Part shown: positions 1-15,296 of the stretch, piece after piece
Layout of the letters: every line of letters starts with the position of its first letter
Numbering within the stretch: position 1 is the stretch's first letter
From: a virus
UHGV virus genome: UHGV-0189314
Direction: 5' to 3' (one strand)
Length of the DNA: 27,150 nucleotides
Position numbers and translations under genes: made by a program
The notes under the pieces: model-generated
Databases searched by the model: none
What the model was told of the DNA's origin: nothing
The model's input: the letters and a program-made list of their open reading frames with translations, nothing else

Positions 1-6
1 CAGGAT

Positions 7-81
<75 letters not shown>

Positions 82-430
82 GAGAAACAAGCCTTACTGT
101 ATTGTGGCACTGGCGTATTTTTTATTACGTGGGGGCAGGTTGTTTTTAAATGACGTTTTGCTTTCTGGCTATGATGTTAGGTCGGGTGTAGCCTCAGTGC
201 TGATTTTTTACAATACCGGGATGGTGCAATATCGGTGGAGATTTTATATTTCCTGGCAGGGCCGATGATGCATCATCCCGGTGTTGTAAATAACACTAAA
301 GAGGTGTTCCTCAGTGCGAGGGTGGTTTCATGGGGAATCATAATATCTGTTGTAGGGATAGATATTTCAGGATGCACCCGACACTTCGATTTTTATTACA
401 ATAAAAATGGTTTATCTCATGCGTTGACTA

Positions 431-456
431 ACCGCCATACTTGGCGGTTTTTTTTA
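431..456 (+). terminator. Intrinsic-terminator-like hairpin (ACCGCCA-TACT-TGGCGGT) followed by T8
   Basis: Perfect 7-bp GC-rich stem, 4-nt loop, then TTTTTTTT at 449-456. Lies inside the dubious ORF 235-594. Confidence 0.5.
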
Positions 457-532
457 TTCCTGTACCAGATTAAAAAGCATGTGAACTCTGGAAAGCTTGT
501 GGGACAAGAACCTTGGGTAGCAATTTGCGAGA

Positions 533-542
533 GGGGGGGGGG
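533..542. repeat. Homopolymeric G10 tract
   Basis: Ten consecutive G at 533-542 (gagGGGGGGGGGGacg) in the non-coding leader. Confidence 0.9.
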
Positions 543-603
543 ACGTAGCGTGTTTGTTGGATTTAGACCGCGGGACAAAATCCATGAAGAATAATAAGTA
601 TCT

Positions 604-630
604 GCCTCCTTTCGGAGGCGTTCTTATATT
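604..630 (+). terminator. Intrinsic-terminator-like hairpin (GCCUCC-UUUC-GGAGGC) with U-rich tail
   Basis: 6-bp stem with tetraloop at 604-619, followed by ttcttatatt. Confidence 0.45.
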
Positions 631-726
631 AGTAAGCATCATAAATGGTTTAAATTTTCAGATTAATAATAATTTTAGATAAGCTTAATTTTATTTCTTC
701 ACGACATATCCTGCGCACATCAAATA

Positions 727-767
727 ACGCCCCATAAAAGGCATCTGCGGTGTTTTTAATGGGGCGT
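727..767 (+). promoter_or_regulatory. 9-bp inverted repeat ACGCCCCAT / ATGGGGCGT with 23-nt loop, upstream of holin
   Basis: Arms at 727-735 and 759-767 are exact reverse complements; followed by AGTTTTTA. Possible RNA structure or protein-binding palindrome. Confidence 0.35.
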
Positions 768-776
768 AGTTTTTAC

Positions 777-802
777 GGGCCGCTGGTGGCCCTTTTTTAT
801 TT
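777..802 (+). terminator. Intrinsic terminator-like hairpin (GGGCC-GCTGGT-GGCCC) + TTTTTTATTT, 15 nt upstream of the holin start
   Basis: 5-bp GC stem, 6-nt loop, T-tract 793-802; RBS CAGGAG at 805-810 and ATG at 818 follow. Position is analogous to lambda tR' ahead of S. Confidence 0.5.
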
Positions 803-817
803 ACAGGAGAAAAAAGT

Positions 818-1210
818 ATGTCTGAACCCTTATCCGGTTCCGGCGCAGCTGTGGCGCTTGGTGGGGCGACGGTATTCGGGCTGTTTACCGGAACGGATTT
901 CGGGATTGTGTTTGGTGCGTTCGCCGGGGCGTTATTTGTGGCAACGATGCCGCAGGCGCTTTCAGCCTGGCGTGTGGCGGCGCATTTTCTGGTGTCGTTC
1001 ATTATCGGCGTGCTGGGCGCAGAGGTTCTGGCATCCGGGCTGGTAAAGCATACAGAGTTTGACGGTGCACCTGTCGACGCATTGTGTGCAGTACTGGTGT
1101 CAGTGGTGTCGGTGAAGATTCTGTCGTTCATCCACCAGCAGGATATCGCATCACTGGTGTCCGGCCTGTTCTCACGCCTGCGGGGCGGAGGAGACGGCAA
1201 TGTTAAGTAA
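818..1210 (+). CDS. Holin-like multi-pass membrane protein (130 aa)
   Basis: RBS CAGGAG 8 nt upstream. Three to four Gly/Ala-rich hydrophobic segments (GAAVALGGATVFGLFTG, GIVFGAFAGALFVA, FLVSFIIGVLGAEVLASGLV, LCAVLVSVVSVKILSF). First gene of a three-gene block ending in an endolysin, overlapping the next gene by 11 nt. Confidence 0.55.
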   Translation: MSEPLSGSGAAVALGGATVFGLFTGTDFGIVFGAFAGALFVATMPQALSAWRVAAHFLVSFIIGVLGAEVLASGLVKHTEFDGAPVDALCAVLVSVVSVKILSFIHQQDIASLVSGLFSRLRGGGDGNVK

Positions 1211-1478
1211 CCTTCCGGGATTGCTGAATGTGGCGTTATGCACGGTTATCGTGCTGACGCTCTTTTTTTATCGTCGCCGTGATTCCAGACATAAACCGCT
1301 GATGTCATGGCTGGCCTGGCTGCTGATGCTGCTTTATGGCTTTGTTCCACTCAGCTATCTGTGCGGTCGCCCGTTAGCGGCGAACTGGCTGGCGGTAGGG
1401 CTTAATCTGCTGTTCTGCGTGCTGGTGATTTGCGCACGCGGGAACGTTTCAAAAATCCTTGTATTACGAAGGCGCTGA
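1200..1478 (+). CDS. Class-I-holin-like membrane protein (92 aa; holin or antiholin partner)
   Basis: RBS GGAGGAG 6 nt upstream. Three predicted TM helices and a basic C-terminus (KILVLRRR) as in lambda-S-type holins. Stop at 1476-1478 sits 1 nt before the endolysin ATG. Confidence 0.55.
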   Translation: MLSNLPGLLNVALCTVIVLTLFFYRRRDSRHKPLMSWLAWLLMLLYGFVPLSYLCGRPLAANWLAVGLNLLFCVLVICARGNVSKILVLRRR

Positions 1479-1479
1479 T

Positions 1480-2025
1480 ATGAAGTCGAAAGATGAAATT
1501 TTTGACGAAGTTCTGGGAAAAGAGGCCGGTTACGTCAATCACCCGGATGATAAAGGTGGTCCGACTAAATGGGGAATTACTGAAAAAGTTGCCCGTGCGC
1601 ACGGATATCAGGGTGATATGTGTAACCTGACACGCGCTCAGGCGCTGGAAATACTTGAAGCGGACTACTGGTACGGACCACGATTCGACCAGATTGCCAG
1701 CCTGTCTCCTGATATTGCCGCAGAGCTGTGTGACACGGGCGTGAACATGGGGCCAACCGTGGCGTCAAAAATGCTTCAACGCTGGCTGAACGTTTTCAAC
1801 CTGCGCGGGAAACTGTATCCGGATATGGATGCAGATGGACGCATCGGACCGCGTACCATCAATGCGTTACGGGCATATCTGCAAAATCGTGGCAGGGATG
1901 GAGAGCTGGTAATGCTGACCGCGCTGAACTGTACGCAGGGTGACCGCTATCTGGAGTTGGCAGAGAAGCGCGAGGCTAACGAGTCGTTTGTCTACGGCTG
2001 GATGAAAGAGCGCGTGGTGGTTTAA
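1480..2025 (+). CDS. Endolysin: GH108-type muramidase domain + peptidoglycan-binding domain
   Basis: N-terminus LGKEAGYVNHPDDKGGPTKWGIT is the GH108 catalytic-Glu region (E-x-G-Y motif) and the C-terminal half resembles the PG_binding_3 domain of TtsA-like / phage endolysins (recalled, not searched). ATG at 1480 preferred over the ORF-track start at 1459. Confidence 0.85.
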   Translation: MKSKDEIFDEVLGKEAGYVNHPDDKGGPTKWGITEKVARAHGYQGDMCNLTRAQALEILEADYWYGPRFDQIASLSPDIAAELCDTGVNMGPTVASKMLQRWLNVFNLRGKLYPDMDADGRIGPRTINALRAYLQNRGRDGELVMLTALNCTQGDRYLELAEKREANESFVYGWMKERVVV

Positions 2026-2250
2026 AAACTGACACTGAAGTGCTGAACACCCTCAACTCATGCAGGTTCTTTTCTGGGGTTACGATAGTCGCAAGCATGG
2101 GCAATAGCGCCAGATGGTAAAAAGCAAAACCCCGGCTGCGGGAACAGTCCGGGATTTTTGGTTTTCACGCCAAAGAGGAAATTGTGATCAGTGAGTACGG
2201 AGAAAATCCTCTTGGGAAAGTATAAAAGATTCTTTTTGAGGTTGTCCATT

Positions 2251-2364
2251 ATGAAAGGCATAGAAGTTGAAACTCCCGCGAGTCTTGATTTGACAAGGGC
2301 TGCGGCCTTTGCAATTCGCCTTGTAGCAGTCGCTATTCTGATTTGGGCTGTGCGTTGGTGGTGA
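2251..2364 (+). CDS. Small hypothetical membrane protein (37 aa, C-terminal TM helix)
   Basis: MKGIEVETPASLDLTRAAAFAIRLVAVAILIWAVRWW read in frame; below the ORF-track cutoff. Stop TGA at 2362-2364 is 1 nt before the next ORF's ATG. Weak RBS. Confidence 0.3.
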   Translation: MKGIEVETPASLDLTRAAAFAIRLVAVAILIWAVRWW

Positions 2365-2365
2365 T

Positions 2366-2548
2366 ATGACACGAAAACACTGGACACACAGAATGCCGCG
2401 AACGGCGGCGAAATGGGCACTGGTAGCGATACTGGTGCCTTTTTTATTGGTGGGATGTGTCAGCCTGGATAAAGCGCGCCAGCTTTTCGATACAGCTTCA
2501 CAGGTCTGCAAAATTGTCGACAGTGTCCAGCAGTGTATGCAGAACTGA
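2366..2548 (+). CDS. Small putative lipoprotein (lipobox LLVG-C); alternative start at 2393
   Basis: Signal peptide: basic n-region, hydrophobic WALVAILVPFLLVG, then Cys. The 30-aa mature part CVSLDKARQLFDTASQVCKIVDSVQQCMQN has 3 Cys and no prolines, so it is not a typical Rz1-type o-spanin. Confidence 0.4.
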   Translation: MTRKHWTHRMPRTAAKWALVAILVPFLLVGCVSLDKARQLFDTASQVCKIVDSVQQCMQN

Positions 2549-2878
2549 TAGACTGTGAGAGCAGAATATTTTGCTGAAAAATAAAAGACGCGTCGGCATC
2601 CGGAAAGCGTAGAGTTCTGCTACGTGTGCCAATTTTATCTTATTCATTCTAAATCTTGCCAAATCAAATGGAGCTTTGCTCAACTGCCCGGGTGGGAAGG
2701 GGCATTAAAACACGGGAAAATTATGTGGAAATCTACAGGAGTCAAGTTAATCACCGTATTGATTGACGGCAAACCACAATACTCACTTATTGAAATGAGC
2801 GGTCAGCATGCTTGTTTGGTTCGTGAGTAACAGGCATTACAGCAGTCCTCTCTCACTGAAGGGGGCTGCTGTAATGTG

Positions 2879-3085
2879 TTAGCTGTTTTTTATGAATCCG
2901 TTGACGACCCATCCGACAAATCTGAGAACACCATATATCAGCAAGGCACATGTCAGTGAAGTCAATATATCAAGCAGTGAGAAGCCTTGCGTATCTGTTG
3001 GTGAAAATAAAAGACCAAAGATGAACACCAGTGTAGCCAGCAGAATGCCCAGTCTATGGAACCCGTTCGAAATAGTGTTTTGCAT
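2879..3085 (-). CDS. Small two-TM membrane protein (68 aa) between lysis genes and cos; possible moron
   Basis: Minus-strand ORF with two hydrophobic helices (LGILLATLVFIFGLLF and LTSLTCALLIYGVLRFVGWVV). Occupies the position and orientation of bor in lambda, but has no lipobox. Confidence 0.35.
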   Translation of the reverse strand: MQNTISNGFHRLGILLATLVFIFGLLFSPTDTQGFSLLDILTSLTCALLIYGVLRFVGWVVNGFIKNS

Positions 3086-3255
3086 TTTTGTTTTCCGTAT
3101 CAGGTTGTAATGGTTTAGTTATTTTAGCATCTGGATAATGAGGTTCTAATCGTCTGGATATACCGGAAGCGATGGGGGGCGTTTGTTGAGTCTGATATTT
3201 ATTAAAATGATAACTTTTTCTCATTTTTACGGGTCCTTTCCAGAATCCGAAACAC

Positions 3256-3269
3256 CGGGGGTCGGTGGA
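3256..3269 (+). other. cosN-like cohesive-end site (approximate)
   Basis: GGGGGTCGGTGGA-CGCGCAAAAACG-CGCTATTTATGAGATTTTTT parallels lambda cosN and flank GGGCGGCGACCT-CGCGGGTTTT-CGCTATTTATGAAAATTTT (recalled). The CGCTATTTATGA block is identical, and the site lies ~220 bp upstream of the Nu1 start, as in lambda. Confidence 0.5.
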
Positions 3270-3309
3270 CGCGCAAAAACGCGCTATTTATGAGATTTTT
3301 TGAGGGGGT

Positions 3310-3455
3310 GGTTGTTGTTTAATTGTTTGTTATATCTCATTGATAAGTAAGAATAAACAGAAATAAATACAACAACCTGATGATGCTTTTTGATGTGATC
3401 GATGTATGAAATATAAATAAAATCAAATGGTTTCGTAAAAATACAAGGTTGTTGT
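3310..3455 (+). promoter_or_regulatory. cosB-like region with three copies of GGTTGTTGT (R-like terminase small-subunit binding repeats)
   Basis: GGTTGTTGT at 3310-3318 (+), its complement ACAACAACC at 3369-3377, and GGTTGTTGT at 3447-3455 (+); AT-rich spacers. Mirrors the lambda R3/R2/R1 layout between cosN and Nu1. Confidence 0.45.
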
Positions 3456-3487
3456 ATCGTTTTTTATCGATGGCTTATGGAGAGGAG

Positions 3488-3994
3488 ATGGCCTGTTTAT
3501 TGAATAAAAGCGATATGGCCTCCTCCATCGGTATATCCGTTCAGGCATTTGATAAATGGGGCGTTCCTCCTGTTGAGCGTCGGGGAAGGGAAGTTTTTTA
3601 TGATGTTAAAACCGTGCTGGAAATCGATCGCGAGCGACGACAGCACAATCAGAGAGCACCTGATGACGGGAGTGATCTGGAGGAAAGATTACTCCGGGCC
3701 AGAACTGAACTGACGGAAGAACAGGCCGTAGCTCAAAAACTTAAAAATCAGGTAACCGAAGGTAAGCTCATCGATTCAGAGTTCTGTGTTTTCGCCCTCA
3801 GCAAACTGGCGATGGCATTGTCCAGTACGCTTGATTCCATTCCTTTATCCATGCAGCGACAGTTCCCGGATTTAACCCCGCGTCATATTGATTATCTGAA
3901 AACCCTTATCGCAAAAGGAGCGAATCAGTGTGCGCGGGCAGGGGATAAATTGCCGGAGTTACTCGATGAATATATCCAGACAACAACTGAATAA
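3488..3994 (+). CDS. nu1: Terminase small subunit (lambda Nu1-like)
   Basis: RBS GGAGAGGAG then ATG at 3488. C-terminal FCVFALSKLAMALSSTLDSIPLSMQRQFPDLTPRHIDYLK...LPELLDEYIQ aligns with lambda Nu1 ...FCTFVLSRIAGEIASILDGLPLSVQRRFPELENRHVDFLK...IPGLLSEYIE (recalled). 3' end overlaps the A start, as in lambda. Confidence 0.85.
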   Translation: MACLLNKSDMASSIGISVQAFDKWGVPPVERRGREVFYDVKTVLEIDRERRQHNQRAPDDGSDLEERLLRARTELTEEQAVAQKLKNQVTEGKLIDSEFCVFALSKLAMALSSTLDSIPLSMQRQFPDLTPRHIDYLKTLIAKGANQCARAGDKLPELLDEYIQTTTE

Positions 3995-5882
3995 TATGAT
4001 GCTCGCCGTCACAACCGCATTACAGCCACTGATAAGGGCACTGCCGGTGACGCCGGTTGAGTGGGCTGATCAAAATTATTATCTGCCCAAAGAGTCGTCA
4101 TACGGTGAGGGGGAATGGAAAACCCTGCCGTTCCAGGTCGCCATCATGAACAGCATGGGTAATGACCGGATCCGTACTGTTAATCTGATTAAATCAGCGC
4201 GCGTGGGTTATACCAAAATGCTGTTGGGCGTGATCGGGTATTTTATTGAGCATAAATCCCGTAGCAGTCTGCTTTTTCAGCCGACAGATTCTGCAGCTGA
4301 AGATTTTATGAAAGCGCATGTGGAAGCTACATTGCGGGATGTTCCCTGCCTTAAAGCGTTGTCTCCATGGCTGGGCAAAAAACATCGTGACAACACGCTC
4401 ACTCTGAAGCGTTTTTCCTCCGGTGTGGGGTTCTGGTGCCTGGGCGGTGCCGCAGCTAAAAACTACCGTGAAAAATCTGTGGATGTGGTCTGCTATGACG
4501 AACTCTCCTCGTTTGAACCGGATGTGGAAAAAGAAGGCTCGCCGACGCTGCTTGGCGATAAACGTATCGAAGGCTCGGTATGGCCTAAATCCATACGCGG
4601 CTCAACGCCAAAAATTAAAGGCTCCTGCCAGATTGAGAAAGCCGCGAATGAATCTGCGCATTTCATGCGGTTTTATGTCCCTTGCCCTCATTGCGGGAAG
4701 GCCCAGTATCTGAAGTTTGGCGATGATGCGACGCCGTTTGGCCTGAAATGGGATAAGGGTAAACCGGAAACGGTGTATTACCTGTGTGAACATAATGGCT
4801 GTGTGATCCGGCAGTCGGAACTTGACCAGAGCGACGGACGCTGGATTTGTGACAATACCGGGATGTGGACGCGTGATGGCCTTACATTTTACAGCGCCGG
4901 TGATGAGGAGATACCGCCACCGCGCTCAGTCACGTACCACGTGTGGACAGCGTACAGTCCGTTCACCACCTGGGTGCAGATTATCTACGACTGGCTGGAT
5001 GCGCTGAAGGACCCGAACGGCGTCAAGACGTTTATTAATACCACGCTCGGGGAGCCCTATGAAGAGGCTGTGGCAGAAAAACTGAGCTTTGAGTTGTTGC
5101 TGGAAAAAGTCTGCCACTATGGTGCGCAGGTTCCCCTGCGGGTGGTTTACCTTACCGCCGGGATCGACTCCCAGAAAGATCGCTATGAAATTTATGTCTG
5201 GGGCTGGGCTCCCGGCGAAGAAGCCTTTCTGATTGATAAGCAAATTATCATGGGGCGACCGGAAGACGAGGACACCCTGAAACGTGTTGATACGGTGATC
5301 CGGAAAAAATACCGCCATGCTGACGGTACTGAAATTTCCATTTCCCGCGTCTGCTGGGATACCGGTGGTATCGACCAGGACATTGTGTATCAGCGTTCCA
5401 GAAAACACGGCACTTTTTTTGTGCTTCCCATAAAAGGGGCATCGGTGTACGGCAAGCCGGTGATCACCATGCCCAAAAAGCGCAACCAGCGTGGCGTGTT
5501 TCTGTGTGAGGTGGGTTCCGACACCGTCAAGGAAATGCTGTATGCCCGTTTTGCCCTGCCGGTGGTTCCTGCCAGTGAAGCCGCTCCGTATACCTTCCGT
5601 TTTCCGGATAACCCGGACATTTTTTCGGAAGAAGAAGCACGTCAAATCGTGGCGGAAGAACTGGTGGAAAAGGTGGTTAATGGCAGGGTGAAACTGCTGT
5701 GGGATAAAAAAGGGCGACGCAACGAAGCCCTCGACTGCCTGGTATATGCCTATGCTGCCCTGCGTATTTCAGTACAACGATGGCAACTGGACCTTGAGGC
5801 ACTGGCCAGGGCACGAAGAGACGAGCAGGATGAGGATGATATGAGTCTGGAAGAAATTGCGGCTGCACTGAGTGGAGGATAA
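3966..5882 (+). CDS. A: Terminase large subunit (lambda gpA-like)
   Basis: Near-colinear match to lambda gpA throughout (MNISRQQ..., EWADQNYYLPKES, WCLGGAAAKNYREKSVDVVCYDEL, YVPCPHCG, VYGKP, RRNEALDC). Start at ATG 3966, not the ORF-track 3930. Confidence 0.95.
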   Translation: MNISRQQLNNMMLAVTTALQPLIRALPVTPVEWADQNYYLPKESSYGEGEWKTLPFQVAIMNSMGNDRIRTVNLIKSARVGYTKMLLGVIGYFIEHKSRSSLLFQPTDSAAEDFMKAHVEATLRDVPCLKALSPWLGKKHRDNTLTLKRFSSGVGFWCLGGAAAKNYREKSVDVVCYDELSSFEPDVEKEGSPTLLGDKRIEGSVWPKSIRGSTPKIKGSCQIEKAANESAHFMRFYVPCPHCGKAQYLKFGDDATPFGLKWDKGKPETVYYLCEHNGCVIRQSELDQSDGRWICDNTGMWTRDGLTFYSAGDEEIPPPRSVTYHVWTAYSPFTTWVQIIYDWLDALKDPNGVKTFINTTLGEPYEEAVAEKLSFELLLEKVCHYGAQVPLRVVYLTAGIDSQKDRYEIYVWGWAPGEEAFLIDKQIIMGRPEDEDTLKRVDTVIRKKYRHADGTEISISRVCWDTGGIDQDIVYQRSRKHGTFFVLPIKGASVYGKPVITMPKKRNQRGVFLCEVGSDTVKEMLYARFALPVVPASEAAPYTFRFPDNPDIFSEEEARQIVAEELVEKVVNGRVKLLWDKKGRRNEALDCLVYAYAALRISVQRWQLDLEALARARRDEQDEDDMSLEEIAAALSGG

Positions 5883-5885
5883 GTG

Positions 5886-6095
5886 ATGATTTATACACAT
5901 GAGATGCTTTGCGAAGCGCGTCGGGCGCTGCATGAACTGATGATCGGGCGTGCTGTGGCTTCTGTCAGTAAGAACGGACGACAGGTACAGTATTCGCGGG
6001 CGACGATTAATGAATTACGGCGATATATTGAGGAAATTGAAAGTGCGCTTGGAATGTCCGGTCGTCGCCGTGGCCCTGCAGGAATACGACTGTGA
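5886..6095 (+). CDS. W: Head-tail joining protein (lambda gpW-like)
   Basis: ARRALHELMIGRAVASVSKNGRQVQYSRATINELRRYIEEIESALG...RRRGPAG matches lambda W ([28 protein letters not shown]...RRRGPAG). Alternative GTG start at 5883. Confidence 0.85.
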   Translation: MIYTHEMLCEARRALHELMIGRAVASVSKNGRQVQYSRATINELRRYIEEIESALGMSGRRRGPAGIRL

Positions 6096-7663
6096 GCGGG
6101 GGACTGGTGGATCTTCACGGACAACCTTTGCGGCAGAGTATGGGATATTCCGGCGGCGGCTCCGGATTCGGAGGGCAACTGGCTGAATGGTTGCCAGCAC
6201 CGGAAAGTGCCGATGTGGCGCTCTTACCTTCCATTCAGTTGGGTAACGCCCGTGCGGACGATCTGGTCCGTAACAACGGTATTGCCGCAAATGCTGTGGA
6301 AATTCATAAAGACCATATCGTCGGTCACATGTTTCGCCTGAGCTACCGACCCAACTGGCGCTGGCTGGGGATGTCAGAAGCTGATTCGCATGCCTTTATT
6401 GAAGATGTGGAGGCGGCGTGGGTGGAATATTGCGATCCGGTATTTGGTTCGATGGATGTGGAAGGGCGTCGCTCGTTTACCGAATTTATTCGTGAAGGGG
6501 TGGGCGTTCATACGTTTAACGGTGAAATTTTTGTCCAGCCCGTATGGGATACGGAATCCACGTCATTATTCAGAACAAAATTCAAGACCATCAGTCCGAA
6601 GCGCGTCAGCACGCCCGGTTATGGCATCGGCGATCGTTTTATGCGTGCCGGGGTGGAAATCAACCGGTACGGAAAAGCACTGGCCTACCATGTTCAGGAA
6701 GATGACTGGCCCGGTTACGGTGTCAGCAACTGGACACGGATTGCGGCGACGCTGCCCTCCGGGCGACCGGGAATGATCCATGTGTTTCAGCCGCAGGAAG
6801 ACGGACAGACGCGCGGGGCCAACCAGTTTTATTCCGTGATGGAGCGCCTCAAGATGCTCGACACACTGCAGGCCACGCAACTGCAGTCGGCGGTGGTGCG
6901 GGCGATGTATGCCGCGACGATTGAATCCACACTGGATTCGGAAAAAGCATTTGAATATATCGCCGGGGTGGGAGATGGCGGTAAAAATCCCCTGAACACC
7001 ATCATGAAAGGCTATGCGCGCTATTACGCCACCAATACGGTAAAGATGGGTGGGGTTCGTATTCCGCATCTTTATCCGGGGGATTCACTGAATCTGCAGA
7101 CAGCACAGAATGCGGATAATGGTTTCTCTGAACTGGAAAAGGCGCTGTTACGTTACATTGCTGCCGGACTGGGCGTGTCCTATGAGCAGCTTTCCCGCGA
7201 TTATTCACAGGTCAGTTATTCCAGTGCCAGAGCATCCGCCAATGAGTCGTGGCGGTATTTTATGGGGAAACGAAAATTTGTGGCCAGCCGACTGGCGTCA
7301 CAGATGTTTGCCTGCTGGCTGGAGGAAGCCCTTATTCGCGGTGTGATCCGCCCGCCGAAATCCCGTTTTTCATTCTGGGAGGCCCGTTCCGGATGGTGTC
7401 GTGCCGAGTGGATTGGTGCCGGTCGCATGGCAATTGATGGTCTTAAGGAAGTGCAGGAAGCGGTGATGCGTATTGAAGGTGGTTTAAGCACGTACGAGAA
7501 AGAGCTGGCCCTGATGGGCGATGACTATCAGGAGATTTTCCGCCAGCAACTGCGTGAAAGCCAGGAGCGACAGGCTGCGGGTCTTCCCCGCCCCATCTGG
7601 ATAAAGGACACGTTTCAGCAGCAGATCCGACAGACAACGGGAGAAAAAGGCGATGCGTCGTAA
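6092..7663 (+). CDS. B: Portal protein (lambda gpB-like)
   Basis: GTG start overlapping the W stop (GTGA). Long colinear identity to lambda gpB (GGGSGFGGQL, GNARADDLVRNNG, FRTKFKTISPKR, HVFQPQEDGQTRGANQFYSVMERLKMLDTLQ, SYEQLSRDYSQVSYSSARASANESW). Confidence 0.95.
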   Translation: MSGGLVDLHGQPLRQSMGYSGGGSGFGGQLAEWLPAPESADVALLPSIQLGNARADDLVRNNGIAANAVEIHKDHIVGHMFRLSYRPNWRWLGMSEADSHAFIEDVEAAWVEYCDPVFGSMDVEGRRSFTEFIREGVGVHTFNGEIFVQPVWDTESTSLFRTKFKTISPKRVSTPGYGIGDRFMRAGVEINRYGKALAYHVQEDDWPGYGVSNWTRIAATLPSGRPGMIHVFQPQEDGQTRGANQFYSVMERLKMLDTLQATQLQSAVVRAMYAATIESTLDSEKAFEYIAGVGDGGKNPLNTIMKGYARYYATNTVKMGGVRIPHLYPGDSLNLQTAQNADNGFSELEKALLRYIAAGLGVSYEQLSRDYSQVSYSSARASANESWRYFMGKRKFVASRLASQMFACWLEEALIRGVIRPPKSRFSFWEARSGWCRAEWIGAGRMAIDGLKEVQEAVMRIEGGLSTYEKELALMGDDYQEIFRQQLRESQERQAAGLPRPIWIKDTFQQQIRQTTGEKGDAS

Positions 7664-9269
7664 TTTATCGCATATTGCCGCCATGGCATTTAATGAGCCG
7701 CTTTTACTGGAGCCCGCCTATGCGCGGGTTTTCTTTTGCGCGCTGGGTAAAGAGATGGGGGCCGGAAGCCTTACCGTTCCTCAGCAGGCTGTTCAGCTTG
7801 ATGCTGATGGTATGCAACTGGCTGTGACTGACTATATGGCGGGCGGTCAGCGTCCGGCAAAGAGTTACCAGGTGAAGAATGGCATTGCCATTCTGCCGGT
7901 GAGCGGCACGCTGGTGCATAAACTGGGTACCCTGCGGCCTTACTCCGGCATGACAGGCTATGACGGTCTGACGGCCCGCCTTCAGATGGCGGTGAATGAT
8001 CCGGATGTGCGCGGCATTTTGCTGGATATCGACAGCCCGGGCGGTCAGGCTGCCGGGGCGTTTGACTGTGCTGACATGATTTACCGCCTGCGGGAACAGA
8101 AGCCCGTGTGGGCGCTGTGTAATGACATGGCCTGTTCAGCCGCCATGTTGCTGGCGGCAGCCTGTACGCGTCGGCTGGTCACGCAGACGGCAAAAATTGG
8201 TTCGATTGGTGTGATGATGGCGCACACCAGTTACGAGAAACAACTGGCACAGGAAGGGGTGGACATCACGCTGATTTACTCCGGGCAGCACAAGGTTGAC
8301 GGCAACAGTATTCAGGCATTGCCGGCAGGTGTGCGTGCAGATTTTCAGCGCCGTATTGATGAGGCCCGCCGGATGTTTGTCGACAAGGTGGCACGTTATA
8401 CGGGGCTGAGCGCTGAGGCGGTGATGAATACCGAAGCAGCCGTTTATGACGGTCAGGCAGGCATTGATGCAGGCCTGGCTGATCAACTGATTAATGCTGC
8501 AGATGCCGTTGAAGTGATGGTTTCTGCACTGAATGAATCTGTAACACAGGAGGAAACGATGACAGTTAAAAATCTCACCGTTGCTGAAGCGGTGGTCCAG
8601 GAAAATCAGCGCGTGATGGGGATCCTGAATTGTCAGGAGGCGAAAGGGCGCGAGCAACTGGCGCAAATGCTGGCAGGTCAGCCTGGAATGACGGTTGAGC
8701 AGGCGAAAACGTTGCTGGCTGCTGTGCCGGTTGCCGGTACTGACAGCACGGGTGATCAGATTATGGCGCTGCCGGAAGCAAAGGGGCGTGAGCAACTGGC
8801 ACAGATGCTGGCAGGTCAACCGGGGATGACGGTGGCGCAGGCGAAAGCGTTTCTGGCGGCAGCCCCTGCTGCCGGTGCTGCAGGCACAGGCGAACAGATT
8901 ATGGCGTTACCAGAAGCAAAAGGGCGTGAACAACTCGCGCAGGCGCTGGCTGAACAGCCGGGAATGACCGTTGACCAGGCCAAAACGTTACTGGCGGCGG
9001 CACCGGTTGCGGGTTCTGCAAGTGTCGGCGAACAGATTATGGCGCTGCCGGAGGCGAAAGGGCGCGAACAACTTGCACAGGCACTGACAGAACAGCCAGG
9101 AATGACGGTGGCGCAGGCGAAAACGCTGCTGGCAGCCGCGCCGGCGGCATCGCAACCGTCACAGGAAACACTTTTTGATCGCTTTATGGCACAGCATGCT
9201 GCCAGTGCGGTTTCCGGTGGCGGAACTGCCGGGCGCGGGGAGGAAGACCTGCTGATGAGTATGCCGTAA
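7653..9269 (+). CDS. C: Head maturation protease / scaffold (lambda gpC-like, S49 family) with repeat-expanded C-terminal domain
   Basis: N-terminal ~300 aa match lambda C / ClpP-like S49 protease; the C-terminal ~230 aa consist of four 46-aa tandem repeats. Start overlaps the portal stop. Confidence 0.9.
   Translation: MRRNLSHIAAMAFNEPLLLEPAYARVFFCALGKEMGAGSLTVPQQAVQLDADGMQLAVTDYMAGGQRPAKSYQVKNGIAILPVSGTLVHKLGTLRPYSGMTGYDGLTARLQMAVNDPDVRGILLDIDSPGGQAAGAFDCADMIYRLREQKPVWALCNDMACSAAMLLAAACTRRLVTQTAKIGSIGVMMAHTSYEKQLAQEGVDITLIYSGQHKVDGNSIQALPAGVRADFQRRIDEARRMFVDKVARYTGLSAEAVMNTEAAVYDGQAGIDAGLADQLINAADAVEVMVSALNESVTQEETMTVKNLTVAEAVVQENQRVMGILNCQEAKGREQLAQMLAGQPGMTVEQAKTLLAAVPVAGTDSTGDQIMALPEAKGREQLAQMLAGQPGMTVAQAKAFLAAAPAAGAAGTGEQIMALPEAKGREQLAQALAEQPGMTVDQAKTLLAAAPVAGSASVGEQIMALPEAKGREQLAQALTEQPGMTVAQAKTLLAAAPAASQPSQETLFDRFMAQHAASAVSGGGTAGRGEEDLLMSMP
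8559..9269 (+). CDS. nu3: Putative nested in-frame scaffolding protein (lambda Nu3 analogue)
   Basis: Internal in-frame ATG at 8559 preceded by strong RBS CAGGAGGAAACG. In lambda, Nu3 is translated from an internal start in the 3' part of C. Inference by analogy. Confidence 0.45.
   Translation: MTVKNLTVAEAVVQENQRVMGILNCQEAKGREQLAQMLAGQPGMTVEQAKTLLAAVPVAGTDSTGDQIMALPEAKGREQLAQMLAGQPGMTVAQAKAFLAAAPAAGAAGTGEQIMALPEAKGREQLAQALAEQPGMTVDQAKTLLAAAPVAGSASVGEQIMALPEAKGREQLAQALTEQPGMTVAQAKTLLAAAPAASQPSQETLFDRFMAQHAASAVSGGGTAGRGEEDLLMSMP
8628..9180 (+). repeat. Four tandem copies of a 138-bp (46-codon) coding repeat inside the C/Nu3 scaffold domain
   Basis: The EAKGRE-encoding codons recur at 8637, 8775, 8913 and 9051 (period exactly 138 bp). 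Peptide units: (Q)EAKGREQLAQ[M/A]LA[G/E]QPGMTV[E/A/D]QAK[T/A][L/F]LAA[V/A]P[V/A]AG...[D/E]QIMALP; copies are diverged, not identical. Confidence 0.85.
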
Positions 9270-9307
9270 GCGATATCCGGAATTCAGATAAATCAGGAGA
9301 CTGAAAA

Positions 9308-9643
9308 ATGATTAAAACCACCACGGAAAATCGCGCGGATGTGCATATTTTTGCCGGAAGCGATCCGGCGCATACTGCAACCGCCACCAGTGGTATCAGT
9401 GCTGCCACGCCTGCACTGACGCCACTGATGCTGGATGACGCCACCGGTAAACTGGTGGCATGGGATGGTCAGAAAGCCGGAACGGCAGTGGGCGTGCTGG
9501 CTCTGGCGCTTACCGGAACAGAACCCACGCTGACGTACTACAAAAGCGGTACGTTTGCCACTGAGTCGCTGGTCTGGCCTGACTCTGTGGATGCGGCGAA
9601 AAAAGCCAACGCATTTGTGGGAAGTGCCATCAGCCACGCCTGA
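9308..9643 (+). CDS. D: Head decoration protein (lambda gpD-like)
   Basis: SDPAHTATA...PALTPLMLD...KLVAWDG...YKSGTF matches lambda D ([26 protein letters not shown]...KLVAWDG...YKSGTF). RBS AGGAG upstream. Confidence 0.9.
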
Positions 9644-9665
9644 TGGTGAAGTGATTAACTGAAAA

Positions 9666-9696
9666 ACGGGTCGCGATGCGGCCCGTTTGTGTTTCT
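9666..9696 (+). terminator. Hairpin (ACGGGUCGC-GAU-GCGGCCCGU, one G-U pair) with T-rich tail between D and E
   Basis: 9-bp stem read directly, flanked by an A-run upstream and TTGTGTTTCTG downstream; possible attenuator. Confidence 0.35.
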
Positions 9697-9711
9697 GAAG
9701 GAAAATAAATT

Positions 9712-10740
9712 ATGGGGTTATTTACCACGCGTCAGTTACTCGGGTACACCGAGCAGAAAGTGAAATTTCGTGCGCTGTTTCTGGAGCTGTTTTTTCGTCG
9801 CACGATCACTTTCCATACTCAGGAAGTGATGCTGGATAAAATTACCGGCAAAACACCGGTTGCGGCGTATGTGTCTCCGGTGGTGTCAGGCAAAGTGCTG
9901 CGCAGCCGTGGTGGTGAAACCCGCGTGTTACGTCCCGGTTATGTAAAACCAAAACACCGCTTTGATTATCAGCAGGCAGTGGAACGTCTTCCGGGGGAAG
10001 ATCCGGCCCGTCTTAATGACCCTGCCTACCGCCGCCTGCGTATTCTGACGGACAACCTGAAGCAGGAAGAGCAGGCGATTGTGCAGGTGGAAGAAATGCA
10101 GGCGGTCAGTGCCGTTCTGCAGGGTAAGTACACCATGAGCGGGGAACAGTTTGAGACGGTGGAAGTGGATTTTGGGCGCTCTGCCGCCAATAACATTACG
10201 CAGGCTGGCGGACGCGAATGGTCACAGCAGAATGCTGACACCTTTGATCCAACGCACGATCTGGATGCGTACTGCGATTTTGCCTCCGGGACCATCAATA
10301 TCGCGATTATGGATGGCACGGTCTGGCGTATGCTGAATGGCTTTAAGCTTTTCCGTGAAAAACTGGATACCCGTCGTGGTTCAAAATCGGAACTGGAAAC
10401 CGCGCTGAAAGATCTGGGCTCCGTGGTCTCTTTTAAGGGGTATTACGGTGATCTGGCTATTGTGGTGGCGAAAACCGCTTACGTCGATGAAAACGGGGAT
10501 GAACAGCGTTATCTGCCGGAAGGCACACTGATTCTGGGGAACACTCAGGCAGAAGGTGTTCGTTGCTATGGGGCTATTCAGGATAACCAGGCGCTGAGTG
10601 AAGGGATCACCTCTGCAATTCGTTATCCAAAACACTGGCTGGAGGTGGGTGATCCTGGTTGCGAATATACCATGACGCAGTCTGCGCCGTTGATGGTGTT
10701 GCCGGATCCTGACGCGTTTGTGGTGGTTCAGGTGAAATAA
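9712..10740 (+). CDS. E: Major capsid protein (lambda gpE-like)
   Basis: Colinear with lambda E: FLELFFRR, YVSPVVSGKVLRSRGG, PGYVKPKH, DPAYRRLRI, QVEEMQAVSAVLQGKYTMSGE, EKLDTRRGSKSELETA, GNTQAEG, TMTQSAPLMVL. Confidence 0.95.
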   Translation: MGLFTTRQLLGYTEQKVKFRALFLELFFRRTITFHTQEVMLDKITGKTPVAAYVSPVVSGKVLRSRGGETRVLRPGYVKPKHRFDYQQAVERLPGEDPARLNDPAYRRLRILTDNLKQEEQAIVQVEEMQAVSAVLQGKYTMSGEQFETVEVDFGRSAANNITQAGGREWSQQNADTFDPTHDLDAYCDFASGTINIAIMDGTVWRMLNGFKLFREKLDTRRGSKSELETALKDLGSVVSFKGYYGDLAIVVAKTAYVDENGDEQRYLPEGTLILGNTQAEGVRCYGAIQDNQALSEGITSAIRYPKHWLEVGDPGCEYTMTQSAPLMVLPDPDAFVVVQVK

Positions 10741-10745
10741 GACGG

Positions 10746-10770
10746 GGCGGGATATTCCCGCCTTTTTCTT
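10746..10770 (+). terminator. Intrinsic terminator (GGCGGGA-TAT-TCCCGCC + TTTTTCTT) after the capsid gene
   Basis: 7-bp GC-rich stem, 3-nt loop, T-tract 10763-10770, directly after the E stop codon. Confidence 0.6.
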
Positions 10771-10790
10771 TAGCGCACGGGAGAGATGTG

Positions 10791-11156
10791 ATGACAAAAG
10801 AGCAGATGACTGAACGTTTGCAGGAACTGGCAGTGATTCTGGGGCGTGAAGCAGATATTTCAGGTTCAAAAGCCGATCTTGAGCAGCGCTTGGCGGAATG
10901 GGAAGAGGAGGCCGCCGGATTCGATGGGGAGGAGGCAGGGAAGGAAGAGGTGGGCAACGATGCATCCGGCGACGGAATGCATTCTGAGCGGGGACTCGCC
11001 CGGGTGCGTATGCTGAAAACGGCGCATATACCAGCCTGTGATGCTGTGACGGGAAAAATGTTGATGTTTGCCCGGGCCTCCAGTGTTGTGCTGGTCAATG
11101 AAGCCGCAGTTCCTGCGTTGCTGGCGGACGGTCTGGCAGAAAAAATCCGGGAGTGA
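10791..11156 (+). CDS. FI: DNA-packaging / head-tail attachment protein (lambda gpFI-like)
   Basis: N-terminus MTKEQMTERLQELAVILGREADISGSKADLEQRLAEWEEE resembles lambda FI (MTKDELIARLRSLGEQLNRDVSLTGTKEELALRVAELKEE, recalled). ATG 10791 with RBS GGGAGAG. Confidence 0.7.
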   Translation: MTKEQMTERLQELAVILGREADISGSKADLEQRLAEWEEEAAGFDGEEAGKEEVGNDASGDGMHSERGLARVRMLKTAHIPACDAVTGKMLMFARASSVVLVNEAAVPALLADGLAEKIRE

Positions 11157-11560
11157 TGATGTTCGATAATCTGTTCGATCAGGCCATGAGTGATGCGGAT
11201 GACATCATCCTGGATACGATGGGGACGGAAATCAGCATATATCCGGGCGGCACGGAAAGAAGAATCCGTGCCGTTTTTGATGCCCCGGCAGAAAACACCG
11301 GGATGAACACTGGCAGCGGCGAAATTCGTGATACTGCGCCCGTGTTATTTACCCGGAGCGCATGGGCCGCCGGTCTGAAAAAATATGACAGAGTTATGAT
11401 CCATGGCGAACCCTATCAGGTGGTCGATCCCGGCTGGGATGAGTCAGGCACTGCGGGTCAGGGGGTGATTACCATCACCCTTGCGCGTGGAGAGCCGGGG
11501 AGAAATACACCTGCTGCACCGGAACGACCGAGTAAACGTTATGGCAGTCAGAGAGCATGA
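11156..11560 (+). CDS. FII: Head-tail connector (lambda gpFII-like)
   Basis: MMFDNLFDQAMSDADDII..MGTE....GVFDAP resembles lambda FII (MADFDNLFDAAIARADETIRGYMGTSA...GVFDDP, recalled). Start overlaps the FI stop. Confidence 0.75.
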   Translation: MMFDNLFDQAMSDADDIILDTMGTEISIYPGGTERRIRAVFDAPAENTGMNTGSGEIRDTAPVLFTRSAWAAGLKKYDRVMIHGEPYQVVDPGWDESGTAGQGVITITLARGEPGRNTPAAPERPSKRYGSQRA

Positions 11561-12263
11561 ACGAAGCAGTGCCCGGCAGCGACGGCTGGCACGAAACCTC
11601 GTCGTCGATATTGATGAAGATGAGGTGCTGAGAATTATCGCTAAACTGGGTGGGTCAAAAAGTCAGATCCGTAAAGCCTGGGGCGTGGCGCTGAAAAGAG
11701 CCGCGTCTGCACTGCGGATGAAGGCTATGGCAGAGTTTAAAAAACAGGTTGCCCCACGCAGTCAGAAAATGATCAAAAAGCGTGTTCTGCATAATTTTAT
11801 CATTCGTCGTAACGGTGATGAGTTTGATGAGGCGAAGGTATGGTTCGGTCTGAACGCCATCAAAGTACGCGATCTGCGCGGACGCATCAGTGGGGGACGA
11901 CGCGGCGAACGCCATCAGTTGCGCGATGAGCGGGGGCGTTTTGCACCAGCTTCCCGCCGCAGGAAGGCACGGGAGATCCGTTTTAAACCTGCCGGGGAAT
12001 CCCTGCCTGTCAGCACCTGGTCAACGGATGATGCCTTTATCAACCAGTTCGAAGCGGAAAATCGTAACGGACGTATATCAAAAAGGAAAACGATACTGAT
12101 CCGGCAGGCATCCGGACGACGGAGGGTGCGTGAAGCGGAAATTGATATTTATGAAGCCATGCTGAACCGTATAGAGGATTTTGTTTTTCCGGATGCGGAA
12201 GCACTGATCCTGAAAAATTTTGAGCATGAACTGAAATTCCGGGTATTTAAGGGGCTGGAGTGA
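11541..12263 (+). CDS. Z: Putative tail-completion protein (lambda gpZ-like), very basic
   Basis: Lambda-order position after FII; Arg/Lys-rich with a C-terminal segment loosely resembling lambda Z. First ATG at 11541; the ORF-track start at 11481 is TTG. Confidence 0.45.
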   Translation: MAVREHERSSARQRRLARNLVVDIDEDEVLRIIAKLGGSKSQIRKAWGVALKRAASALRMKAMAEFKKQVAPRSQKMIKKRVLHNFIIRRNGDEFDEAKVWFGLNAIKVRDLRGRISGGRRGERHQLRDERGRFAPASRRRKAREIRFKPAGESLPVSTWSTDDAFINQFEAENRNGRISKRKTILIRQASGRRRVREAEIDIYEAMLNRIEDFVFPDAEALILKNFEHELKFRVFKGLE

Positions 12264-12826
12264 TGGAGCCATTGATGATGGGCGCCTGGCATCAGGCGGT
12301 GATTGACAGTCTGAAACAAATTCCCTGGGTGGAAGATGCCGATGAGTACCCGGAAAAAGTGACGCAACTGGTGACGCCTGCTGTGTTTGTGGATGTACCG
12401 GGCTGGGACAAGGCTCATTTTGCCGACGGGCAAACGCGGGTCACGCTGAAATGTGATCTGTTTGTGGTGACAGACCGGGCCGGGAAGACGGAAAACGTGC
12501 CAAAACCGCAGATATTTGCCCGCTGTCTGGCAATGGATTTATCTGACTGGATTGATGGAGCCACGTTCGGGCTGGATAACGTTGATCCGGCGGTTTTTAT
12601 TGATGCTGAGGTGGATACCTTCGACCGGCTGCTGGACGACTACATCGTTTTCCGTGTCTCTTTTGAACAGGACATTCCGGTCGGCGAAGATCCGTTTGCG
12701 GTTCCGGCAGGTGCGCCGTTACAGGAAGTCTGGCTGGGTAAAGTACCGGAAACCGGCAAGAGACATGAGCAGGATTATCGTCTTATCTGGAAATCGGAGG
12801 GCACCGGTGATGAGTCTGGCGGATGA
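12263..12826 (+). CDS. Hypothetical neck / tail-terminator-like protein (position of lambda U)
   Basis: Occupies the slot after Z; weak resemblance to lambda U (AVIDSLKQ vs AAVLDALEK; TPAVFVDVPGWD vs FPAVAVYLTGAEY). Stop overlaps the gpV start. Confidence 0.4.
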   Translation: MEPLMMGAWHQAVIDSLKQIPWVEDADEYPEKVTQLVTPAVFVDVPGWDKAHFADGQTRVTLKCDLFVVTDRAGKTENVPKPQIFARCLAMDLSDWIDGATFGLDNVDPAVFIDAEVDTFDRLLDDYIVFRVSFEQDIPVGEDPFAVPAGAPLQEVWLGKVPETGKRHEQDYRLIWKSEGTGDESGG

Positions 12827-13433
12827 AGTGGCAGAGTTACGCCGCAGGGTGGCGGACATGGTCCGTCGCGGCGTGGTGGACGAGGTGATCCCGGGTAGCC
12901 CGGTGATGGTCCGGGTGGATATCGGGGATGTGCTTTCGCCTCCGTTGCCCTGGATTCAGGTACAGTCCGGGCGCTACATGCAGGTCAGTAATTACCCGGC
13001 TCCCGGAGATGCCGTTACAGTGATATCGGAGGCGGGCGATCTGCGTAACGGTCGGGTGTATCCGGGGGCCAATATTGACGCTATTCCGGTACCGGCGGGC
13101 AGTGAACACGAGCATGTTATTTTGTTTGATACCGGAACGGAGATCCGTTATGACCGTCAGGCTAATGCCCTGTCCATCACGCTGGCTGAAGGCGGCAGCT
13201 ATAAAATCACCGGCAGGGGAACGCTGGACGGTCCGGTGGAAATTACGGATACCCTGACTGTGCAGGGAAAAACGAAGATAAATGCTGATACGCAGGTTCT
13301 GGGCAATATCGGTGCCTCACAGGAGATCACCGACAAAACCGGTAGCATGAGTAAAATTCGCGAAATTTATAATACTCATGATCACCCTGGCGATAGCGGG
13401 GGAACCACCCGTAAACCTAACCAGGAAATGTGA
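12810..13433 (+). CDS. V: Baseplate spike / assembly protein V (P2 gpV-like)
   Basis: C-terminal THDHPGDSGGTT is the gpV signature (P2: HTHKHPGDSGGTTG). ATG at 12810; the ORF-track upstream extension from 12516 overlaps the previous gene in another frame. Confidence 0.9.
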   Translation: MSLADEVAELRRRVADMVRRGVVDEVIPGSPVMVRVDIGDVLSPPLPWIQVQSGRYMQVSNYPAPGDAVTVISEAGDLRNGRVYPGANIDAIPVPAGSEHEHVILFDTGTEIRYDRQANALSITLAEGGSYKITGRGTLDGPVEITDTLTVQGKTKINADTQVLGNIGASQEITDKTGSMSKIREIYNTHDHPGDSGGTTRKPNQEM

Positions 13434-13455
13434 ACGCCGCACCGGCGTTTTTTTT
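13433..13455 (+). terminator. Hairpin AACGCCG-CAC-CGGCGTT + T8 between V and W
   Basis: Perfect 7-bp stem, 3-nt loop, then TTTTTTTT, immediately after the V stop codon. Confidence 0.45.
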
Positions 13456-13467
13456 CGGAAAAATTTC

Positions 13468-13824
13468 ATGATTGGTATTGATTCCGCCACCGGCAGATAT
13501 CTGCACGGTAACGAACATCTGCGTCAGTCCGTCACCGATATTCTGTCAACACCGGTCGGCAGCCGTGTTCTTCTCAGGGAATACGGCAGCAGGTTGTTCA
13601 GTCTGCTTGATAACCCGCAGGATGATTTCACACGGGTGAGGATTGTCCGTGAAACGGCAACTGCCCTGGAACGATGGGAACCCCGCCTGACCCTCCGTCG
13701 GGTGGAGGTGACGTGGACCGGAGAAGGAAGCGCCTGGCTGACGCTTGTCGGGGTGAACAACGAGACACAGGAAACGATTCGACTCGAGGAGATAAAAATT
13801 GGCAACGTCTCAGGCAATCATTGA
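13468..13824 (+). CDS. W: Baseplate wedge protein W (P2 gpW / T4 gp25-like)
   Basis: ILSTPVGSRVLLREYGSRLFSLLDNPQ...LERWEPRLTL matches P2 W (ILRTPVGSRVMRRDYGSLLASMIDQPQ...KWEPRVTL). Confidence 0.85.
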   Translation: MIGIDSATGRYLHGNEHLRQSVTDILSTPVGSRVLLREYGSRLFSLLDNPQDDFTRVRIVRETATALERWEPRLTLRRVEVTWTGEGSAWLTLVGVNNETQETIRLEEIKIGNVSGNH

Positions 13825-14713: not shown

Positions 14714-15296
14714 CGATATCAGGAGCATACTGCCGGTCAGTGCCAGCCGGGCAGAGCGGGTGGTGGACTGTGTCGCCGGAGATATGCTGTCAGATATAGC
14801 GGTCTGCCTGATCCGCTATGTGAAAAATCCCGATTTATGTCCTGCTGAATTGCTGCCATGGCTGGCCTGGGAAATGGCGGTGGACACCTGGAATGAACAC
14901 TGGACGGAGACGGAAAAAAAGTCTGCGATAAAACGTGCTGCTTACATCCACCGCCACAGAGGGACTAAAGCGGCGCTGATGGCATCGCTGGCTGACAGTC
15001 CCTTCCGGTCGCAGATTGTTGAGTGGTATGAGCAGACCCCACCCGGGGAGCCGTATACCTTTCGTTTGAACGTGGAGCAGAAGGATTTACCGGTGCTGAT
15101 GAATGATCATCAGGATCTGAAGCATGCGGTACTCCGTGCCAAAAATCTGCGTAGCTGGTTCAGTATTCACGTTTACGGGAACAGCACAGGGCGGGGATTT
15201 GGTTACGGTTATGTGATGGCGACAGAAAAAATCAGAAGTAACGGTGTGATAACAAAGACAGTGCCCACTGGCGGGCAGAGTGAGGCAGGAGTATGA
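14706..15296 (+). CDS. I: Baseplate / tail protein I (P2 gpI-like)
   Basis: NPDLCPAELLPWLAWEMAVDTWNEHW matches P2 I (NPDTCPANLLPWLAWAFSVDRWDEKW); start overlaps the J stop. Confidence 0.85.
   Translation: MNDDIRSILPVSASRAERVVDCVAGDMLSDIAVCLIRYVKNPDLCPAELLPWLAWEMAVDTWNEHWTETEKKSAIKRAAYIHRHRGTKAALMASLADSPFRSQIVEWYEQTPPGEPYTFRLNVEQKDLPVLMNDHQDLKHAVLRAKNLRSWFSIHVYGNSTGRGFGYGYVMATEKIRSNGVITKTVPTGGQSEAGV

Follow-up and report, generated by a model that had tools for sequence, protein, structure and literature searches.

What is the role of a long non-coding stretch that separates a phage tRNA array from the holin gene, and how do the hairpins that crowd it bear on the transcription of the lysis genes? 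The window considered here is the whole stretch of DNA that was analysed, 27,150 nt of the virus genome UHGV-0189314 on one strand, and it is the late region of an Escherichia coli lambdoid prophage. The non-coding stretch occupies positions 82-817 (736 nt). A preliminary description of this DNA had pointed to three hairpins with T-tracts and a 9-bp perfect inverted repeat within it, and had likened the arrangement to the pR'-tR'-S order of phage lambda with its antiterminator Q. The evidence makes it probable that positions 82-817 form a modular non-coding leader, placed between the tRNA array and the holin gene, of the late operon with its lysis and morphogenesis genes. It is likewise probable that this leader is Q-dependent and carries serial safety terminators which would keep the lysis genes silent.

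Hairpins and U-tracts in front of the holin gene

The closest reference to the window is L003, a prophage of E. coli Sx181-0-1 which is 99.7% identical to it over 82-2100. The elements on which the argument rests are the following, where M1 denotes the first module of the leader.

7-81, + strand: tRNA-Gly (UCC), identified by ARAGORN, by Rfam (64.9 bits) and by the annotation of L003
430-456, + strand: T1, a predicted intrinsic terminator with the stem AACCGCC/GGCGGTT (430-436/443-449), a variable loop and U8; 3' end of M1
727-773, + strand: T3a, a 41-nt hairpin with the 9-bp perfect inverted repeat (727-735/759-767), followed by a U-run
777-802, + strand: T3b, a predicted intrinsic terminator, GGGCCGCTGGTGGCCC followed by T6, with GGGCC(G)...(G)GCCC at 777-792 as a GC stem of 5-6 bp
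805-809, + strand: Shine-Dalgarno sequence AGGAG, followed by the holin ATG at 818

The tRNA-Gly gene is the last of the phage tRNA array, whose order in L003 is Ile-Arg-Thr-Gly. All four elements of the preliminary description occur in the sequence where it had placed them, with folding z-scores of -1.6 to -5.5. Their density is above chance as well, since a pattern scan of window 1-3000 returned 13 terminator-like sites against 3.1 +/- 1.8 in shuffles, and the three hairpins named at first (T1, T3b and T2, the last lying in the middle module) rank among its four best + strand matches. For comparison, window 3001-23000 holds on its + strand 7 sites that have 5 or more G-C pairs (~0.35/kb) versus 3-4 in the 0.37 kb of the leader. 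What had to be revised is the identity of the terminators. T1 and T3b stand, T2, which has no U-tract in most relatives, probably does not, and the inverted repeat at 727-767 is an extra terminator-like element, T3a. Since the hairpin at 727-767 also has a T-run on its 3' side, the leader holds four hairpin and U elements and not three.

T1, T3a and T3b each consist of a G+C-rich stem-loop with a U-tract and are, by their form and conservation, predicted intrinsic terminators. T1, with a stem of 7-8 bp, folds with -13.2 kcal/mol (z = -5.2), and in at least 36 variants its stem is nearly invariant and its U-tract retained, with the loop free to vary. The arms of T3a extend to a 51-nt + strand hairpin of -25 kcal/mol (z = -5.5); its tail is TAG followed by U5 here (T-run 769-773) and T6 in most relatives, and the hairpin with its T-run is retained in 30 variants. 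T3b is nearly invariant in 30 variants, which include phage phiP27 and lysis cassettes of the essD type. Its U-tract covers 793-798 and the sequence stays T-rich to 802, so that it ends 3-7 nt before the Shine-Dalgarno sequence and ~16 nt before the ATG; the gap of 15 nt to the ribosome-binding site given earlier was too long.

Some part of the leader is matched in 564 of 5426 complete E. coli genomes (roughly one in ten), and the full-length leader, at 75-80% identity, in 218 of them, where it is almost always unannotated. None of 60 records sampled from the 589 that matched is labelled O157:H7. Among 50,697 phage records, a distant DNA search found the full leader in SerU-LTIIb and vB_EcoS-683R6 only. 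A pattern scan of species-representative genomes was set aside, as nearly all of its 47 matches were due to chance in G+C-rich genomes and only that in E. ruysiae was real.

The relatives are mosaics of one another, and the breakpoints cluster just after the terminators (~459, ~712 and ~805), which delimits three modules: M1 (82-459), M2 (460-712) and M3 (713-817). The unit of tRNA-Thr/Gly and leader precedes three lysis cassettes (holin1/2 with GH108, holin1/2 with an M15 peptidase, and essD/rrrD) and is found behind two types of Q (PF06530 and DUF1133). One compact relative, which has lost M2 and domain D3 of M1, is reduced to tRNAs, the M1 domains D1 and D2, a short linker, T1, an extra terminator, T3a, T3b and the holin. 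As T1, T3a and T3b are kept in such diverse architectures, the terminator stack is the constant feature of the leader. Accessory genes are found upstream of M3 in relatives, for example TerB with DUF3927 between M2 and M3, or stx2e in phiP27, where it lies just upstream of the unit of M3 and holin; LT-II genes occupy the leader slot or adjacent slots in others. The M2/M3 junction (~712/713) is an insertion slot (L011 2263-2837; L172 2962-3536; L012 1955-3190).

The structured RNA M1 beside the tRNA array

The leader as a whole (82-830, 749 nt) folds far better than its shuffles (z = -8.1). Upstream of T1, M1 consists of three domains, the last of which is joined to T1 by an A+U-rich linker.

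105-209, + strand: domain D1, in which helix P1 (105-112/195-202) closes hairpins 113-130, 131-165 and 167-193 as a four-way junction and is followed by A and U6 (203-209)
207-290, + strand: domain D2, an irregular long hairpin of ~34 bp, the base of which pairs with the preceding U-run
301-387, + strand: domain D3, a multi-stem domain

P1 and its U-run are retained in diverged variants whose inner-hairpin sequences are unrelated, and the same variants retain the long hairpin D2, with compensatory pairs also there; in the window D2 has an energy of -51.2 kcal/mol (z = -9.3). Domain D1 with P1 and U6 (195-209) may itself be a branched terminator-like element, T0. Domain D3 is less constant and is swapped for a short unrelated linker in some relatives (e.g. 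L185).

The alignment of M1 comprises 36 distinct sequences that are 76-100% identical to the window, and its consensus (alifold) has 93 pairs in 12 helices, with 98.8% of the pair cells standard across the variants. Twelve pairs are changed on both sides, compared with 7.7 +/- 1.3 in shuffles (none of 500 reaches 12) and 1-5 when the partners are slid, and there are 58 extra pair types versus 18-29 in slid controls. The G-U cells number 564 and the C-A cells 14, and folding of the consensus gives -103.9 kcal/mol for the + strand versus -48.6 kcal/mol for the - strand; this asymmetry implies that the selected molecule is an RNA of late-gene sense. The M1 variants share no open reading frame (ORF). 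Compensatory pairs, G-U asymmetry and lack of a conserved ORF, the generic marks of a structured non-coding RNA, are thus all present in M1. With Rfam 15, only tRNA passes the gathering thresholds over the whole window, as it does over window 1-1000 with E up to 10; the sub-threshold matches there are microRNA-precursor models on the long hairpin and weak matches overlapping T1.

Other readings of the M1 sequence were rejected. In most relatives a 13-nt indel disrupts the frame of the 118-aa protein WP_122653682.1 called by PGAP/RefSeq (235-594, L003 9154-9510), which crosses T1 and the G-tract of M2 and is not conserved; this protein is very likely spurious. Domain D1 gave no ARAGORN match at sensible thresholds as a tRNA-like or pseudo-tRNA element, and pairing of 100-105 with 210-215, which would lengthen P1, is not conserved in the alignment.

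The chances are about even that M1 (~105-456, with D1, D2 and T1 as its core) represents a family of large structured non-coding RNAs not described before, made together with Escherichia prophage tRNA arrays and having a function of its own. It could possibly serve as a processing or punctuation element, as a stable trans-acting RNA in the lysogen, or as a modulator of polymerase or RNase at the entry to the lysis genes. The family was seen in E. coli and E. ruysiae, including gut-metagenome contigs, and was not found outside Escherichia. A diverged M1-like RNA lies in a 1.3-kb unannotated stretch from tRNA-Arg to tRNA-Gly in E. coli RM11911 (L175 2413-3719), and its place between these two genes ties M1 to the tRNA array rather than to one particular tRNA. 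A diverged D1-D2-D3 is also carried by the 143-kb plasmid pBCE049-1 (L173 2316-2777), beside a degenerate tRNA and among remnants of insertion sequences and transposons.

Large RNAs in such a neighbourhood have precedents. The species 1 and 2 RNAs of phage T4 are stable RNAs of unknown function that are co-transcribed with the phage tRNA cluster, and ROOL and GOLLD are large RNAs that often lie beside tRNAs in prophages. M1 resembles all of these in being a structured non-coding RNA directly beside a phage tRNA array. It differs from ROOL and GOLLD in its smaller size, its confinement to Escherichia and the lack of an Rfam match, and homology with them is neither shown nor expected.

Q, promoters and the way to the lysis genes

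The genes downstream of the leader are those of a late operon. The holin assignment made earlier holds, and a second holin overlaps the first.

818-1210, + strand: holin (PF16931, E = 1.5e-21; phrog_198)
1200-1478, + strand: second holin (PF05449)

A GH108 endolysin with a peptidoglycan-binding domain comes next, followed by terminase, portal, head and contractile-tail genes, all on the + strand. The lysis cassette and then the morphogenesis genes are thus arranged on one strand, with strong + strand hairpin and T-tract sites within the operon (9664-9688, 10744-10764, 13432-13450, 17113-17133 and 19161-19178). For example, the site at 10744-10764 lies directly 3' of ORF 9712-10740, and that at 19161-19178 shortly 3' of ORF 18623-19141. 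The endolysin is not followed by an evident spanin pair of the Rz/Rz1 type (window 2058-3448). Only short ORFs occupy the ~1.4 kb before terS; one of them, of 60 aa (2366-2548), contains a lipobox-like LVGC motif and encloses a strong terminator-like hairpin (2415-2440).

The lambda comparison also presupposed a Q-like antiterminator upstream of the window, and one was seen there in near-identical relatives only. L003 carries a Q gene (PF06530, E = 3.7e-51) ~1 kb upstream of the window start, followed by a hairpin with U7 and then by tRNA-Ile/Arg/Thr/Gly, with Q ~360 nt upstream of the tRNA array. Other relatives have in this place a gene of DUF1133 / phrog_753, annotated as Q-like. The hairpin with U7 of L003 (8407-8432) starts ~80 nt after the Q stop codon, and a similar hairpin follows the DUF1133-type Q; judged by its sequence and place, it is a candidate for tR' in the lambda position, outside the window, to which the hairpins of the window would be additional. 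In L003 a 10/12 match to a sigma-70 promoter, A+T-rich on its upstream side, is situated 33 nt ahead of the first tRNA and ~200 nt past the Q-proximal hairpin, and most other contexts show similar promoter-like sites in front of the tRNA array. Near the Q-proximal hairpin no promoter was convincing, the best sigma-70 match being that in front of the tRNAs.

In phage lambda, late control follows the order Q, pR', 6S RNA, tR' and then S-R-Rz. The prophages studied here are similar in having a Q-family gene upstream, a hairpin and U-tract ~80 nt after the Q stop (in L003), terminators that separate the late promoter region from the holin, a lysis cassette that comes first in the late operon and terminators inside the operon. 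They differ from lambda in the ~1.1 kb from Q to the holin, which is taken up by four tRNA genes, a structured RNA of 350 nt and 3-4 extra terminators, and in Q itself, which is of the PF06530 or DUF1133 type, that of lambda being of the PF03589 type. The likeness to pR'-tR'-S therefore holds in principle, given Q upstream and the conserved T1, T3a and T3b, and is imprecise in its mapping, in that the candidate tR' lies outside the window. T1 is better read as the end of a unit of tRNAs and structured RNA.

The conserved T1, T3a and T3b, the upstream Q and the internal terminators, taken together, make a terminator-resistant elongation complex the natural reading. T1, T3a and T3b would act as serial intrinsic terminators, with T0 perhaps adding to the stack, and would halt any RNA polymerase not modified by Q, whether it started at the promoter-like site before the tRNA array or in an inserted accessory gene, or arose by leakage. 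Within a lysogen, the putative tRNA promoter would direct synthesis of the tRNAs and M1, with a stop at T1 and perhaps in part already at P1 and U6. T1 would then be the 3' end of M1, probably a co-transcript of the tRNAs that would be set free as a stable trailer. T3a and T3b would catch leak-through and the transcripts of accessory genes, so that no holin is made; by stopping unmodified polymerase, the terminators would keep the lethal holin-endolysin cassette silent. Upon induction, Q would load on polymerase at a late promoter upstream of the window, and the modified polymerase would pass all terminators of the leader and those after the capsid, tube and other genes.

Phage L offers the nearest published parallel, both for lambdoid late operons that begin with tRNA genes and for terminators inside such operons; its first tRNA begins 46 bp downstream of the late start site, and a tRNA-proximal pR' has been proposed (PMC8022706). 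P22-like phages, Sf6 and the Stx phages with ileZ-argN-argO also carry tRNAs at the 5' end of the late operon (PMC8022706). The present prophages share with this group the tRNA array between a Q-type gene and the lysis genes, and in both the tRNAs may come either from excision out of the late mRNA or from a promoter of their own. No structured RNA domain is known to have been described after the tRNAs of these phages, which were not compared individually. By analogy with phage L, the promoter before the tRNAs could alternatively be pR' itself. In that case T0/T1 would be tR', the preliminary description would be correct to the letter in its mapping, and M1 would correspond to the lambda 6S RNA or to StxS, the small RNA (sRNA) that arises in Stx phages when transcription from a constitutive pR' terminates early at tR' (PMC7547250).

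Several points weigh against a Q-dependent leader with safety terminators. Q was seen upstream in relatives and not within the window itself, the late promoter pR' and the Q-binding site were not located, and there are two candidates for pR', one next to Q and one before the tRNAs. The T3b hairpin by itself (-10.8 kcal/mol, z = -1.6) is not exceptional against shuffles, T2 does not fit the terminator model, and an insulating role leaves the conserved ~350-nt structure of M1 unexplained. Moreover, a hairpin with a U-tract is equally the normal 3' end of sRNAs, and in other lambdoid prophages the sRNAs PasA/C/D occupy the same position (bioRxiv 10.64898/2026.05.13.724894).

In the strongest of the alternatives, possible although held below even chances, the hairpin and U elements are mainly 3' ends of sRNAs, and M1 and M3 (713-802) are expressed in the lysogen and act in trans, for example as Hfq-bound sRNAs or sponges, in the manner of PasA/C/D, of StxS or of the spacer 3' in the leuZ tRNA operon. 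This alternative is compatible with the terminator function preferred above. Hfq-dependent sRNAs are indeed found directly beside the holin/lysozyme operon in lambdoid prophages of enteropathogenic (EPEC) and enterohemorrhagic (EHEC) E. coli, where the Pas (PasA, PasC, PasD) and EcOnc sRNAs lie between Q or accessory genes and that operon (PMC8550237, PMC4104026, bioRxiv 10.64898/2026.05.13.724894). Like the leader elements, these are non-coding with a stem-loop and U-tail, often beside DUF3927 and tRNA genes. The structure-preserving covariation of M1, the behaviour of the modules as cassettes that end at terminators and the promoter-like site before the tRNA array are also in keeping with sRNAs. 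However, PasA, PasB and PasC have 78-85 nt and are antisense to late genes, and PasD has 172 nt, whereas M1 is of sense strand and, at ~350 nt, far above the typical size of a base-pairing sRNA. A blastn comparison with PasA, PasB, PasC and PasD2 of E2348/69 (published coordinates) gave at best 25 nt at 84% (E = 0.006, PasD2), the others showing only word matches of 7-13 nt; sequence similarity to the Pas sRNAs is thus lacking, and Rfam adds no match. Nor did the scan find inside 82-817 any + strand promoter-like site that could serve M2 or M3.

The middle module, the weaker alternatives and implications

M2 fits a stack of terminators least well, and its features are listed below.

460-712, no strand assigned: module M2, with a variable 5' half (three alternative versions) and a conserved 3' half, wholly absent in some relatives
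532-543, + strand: G12 homopolymer, differing in length and sequence among relatives that are >97% identical
584-682, + strand: ORF of 32 codons (MKNNKY...NFR; MKNNKYLPPFGGVLILVSIINGLNFQINNNFR), overlapping T2
603-620, no strand assigned: T2 hairpin, stem 603-609/614-620, with at least four stem versions kept by compensatory changes
654-626, - strand: promoter-like site with -35 TTTAAA (654-649), a 17-nt spacer and -10 TAATAT (631-626)

T2 has an energy of -12.0 kcal/mol (z = -3.95). Its tail is TTCTTATATT in the window lineage only, and ATGTTCATACT or AGTTGATATT in other relatives, so that a T-rich tail is confined to the window lineage and no U-tract is retained elsewhere. Lacking a U-tract in most relatives, T2 is probably not a terminator; the sequence comparison suggests that it is probably a functional hairpin of another kind, possibly the stem-loop with which an RNA of the minus strand begins. 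The G12 tract reads GGGGG----GG in L044, GGGGG--GAGA in L075 and GGGGG---AAA in L003, and reflects either hypermutability or an error of assembly. The 32-codon ORF is open in 21 of 28 variants, with a conserved stop codon, the other 7 having +/-1-nt indels. Its variable columns by codon position number 18/12/16 of 32, with no third-position excess; it has no Pfam or PHROG match and was called once in a collection of 15 billion proteins. Its translation is doubtful, and is held less probable than an antisense sRNA from the same module.

The preliminary description had suggested a non-coding RNA at 457-603. Support for it on the + strand is weak (alifold -28.7 kcal/mol over 256 columns), and the conserved promoter-like and terminator-like elements point to the minus strand instead. 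M2 (~470-655) could accordingly encode a minus-strand sRNA antisense to the late transcript, with T2 as its 5' stem-loop and a terminator that has decayed in the window lineage; this is on the whole unlikely, a little more so than the trans-acting sRNAs above. In its favour, all 36 unique relatives carry TTTAAA-17-TA(A/G)TAT at an identical place, from which transcription is predicted to start at the T2 hairpin, and 80 or 150 nt downstream most relatives (e.g. L004 1909-1932) have a minus-strand hairpin with U7. This hairpin is located just 3' of T1 and occurs in three compensatory versions, each preceded by an A-run on the + strand. The commonest version of T2 also pairs better on the minus strand, having U-G there and C-A on the + strand, and PasA, PasB and PasC set a precedent as RNAs antisense to late genes. 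On the other hand, the promoter match is 8/12, below the scan threshold, and the window is without the minus-strand terminator, which its lineage has lost. The helix changes of the window lineage give G-U on the + strand, alifold slightly favours that strand (-28.7 vs -22.2 kcal/mol), and the conserved bases could instead reflect the 32-codon ORF.

It is improbable that the leader is merely debris, a recombination hot spot with the scars of lost accessory genes that had brought their own promoters and terminators and with no present function. The TerB/DUF3927, stx2e and LT-II genes in this or adjacent slots of relatives, the coming and going of modules, and the doubtful short ORF and variable G-tract of M2 would suit such a history. 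Against it stand the full-length leader in 218 complete E. coli genomes, the near-complete retention of M1 pairs (98.8% of cells) with compensatory changes over 36 variants, and the presence of T1, T3a and T3b in every architecture seen; hairpins kept through double substitutions are not neutral debris. Finally, it is very improbable that M1 is an attenuator- or riboswitch-like sensor deciding the passage of polymerase at T1, as might be imagined from a large conserved structure immediately upstream of a strong terminator and from GGUGGUU (324-330), which, read from the sequence, could pair with AACCGCC (430-436) and sequester the 5' arm of T1, because this antiterminator or pseudoknot pairing has no covariation support and was rejected, two variants (retrieved by a different motif) are changed in GGUGGUU without compensation in T1, D3 which holds it is dispensable in some relatives that keep T1, three further terminators follow T1, and Rfam gives no riboswitch match.

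For a leader whose terminators would insulate the lysis genes, the implications are of two kinds. The terminator stack before the holin is ordinary lambdoid biology of the textbook kind, and its main use is in annotation, as shown by the 118-aa PGAP protein. M1 is the part worth following. If expressed, it would be a conserved folded RNA of ~350 nt and of unknown function, situated at the switch point between tRNA transcription that is compatible with lysogeny and lysis genes that are lethal, and adjoining the slot that in relatives has received toxin genes (stx2e, LT-II). It makes testable how phage tRNA arrays are transcribed and processed, and whether large structured RNAs beside phage tRNAs are a general theme.

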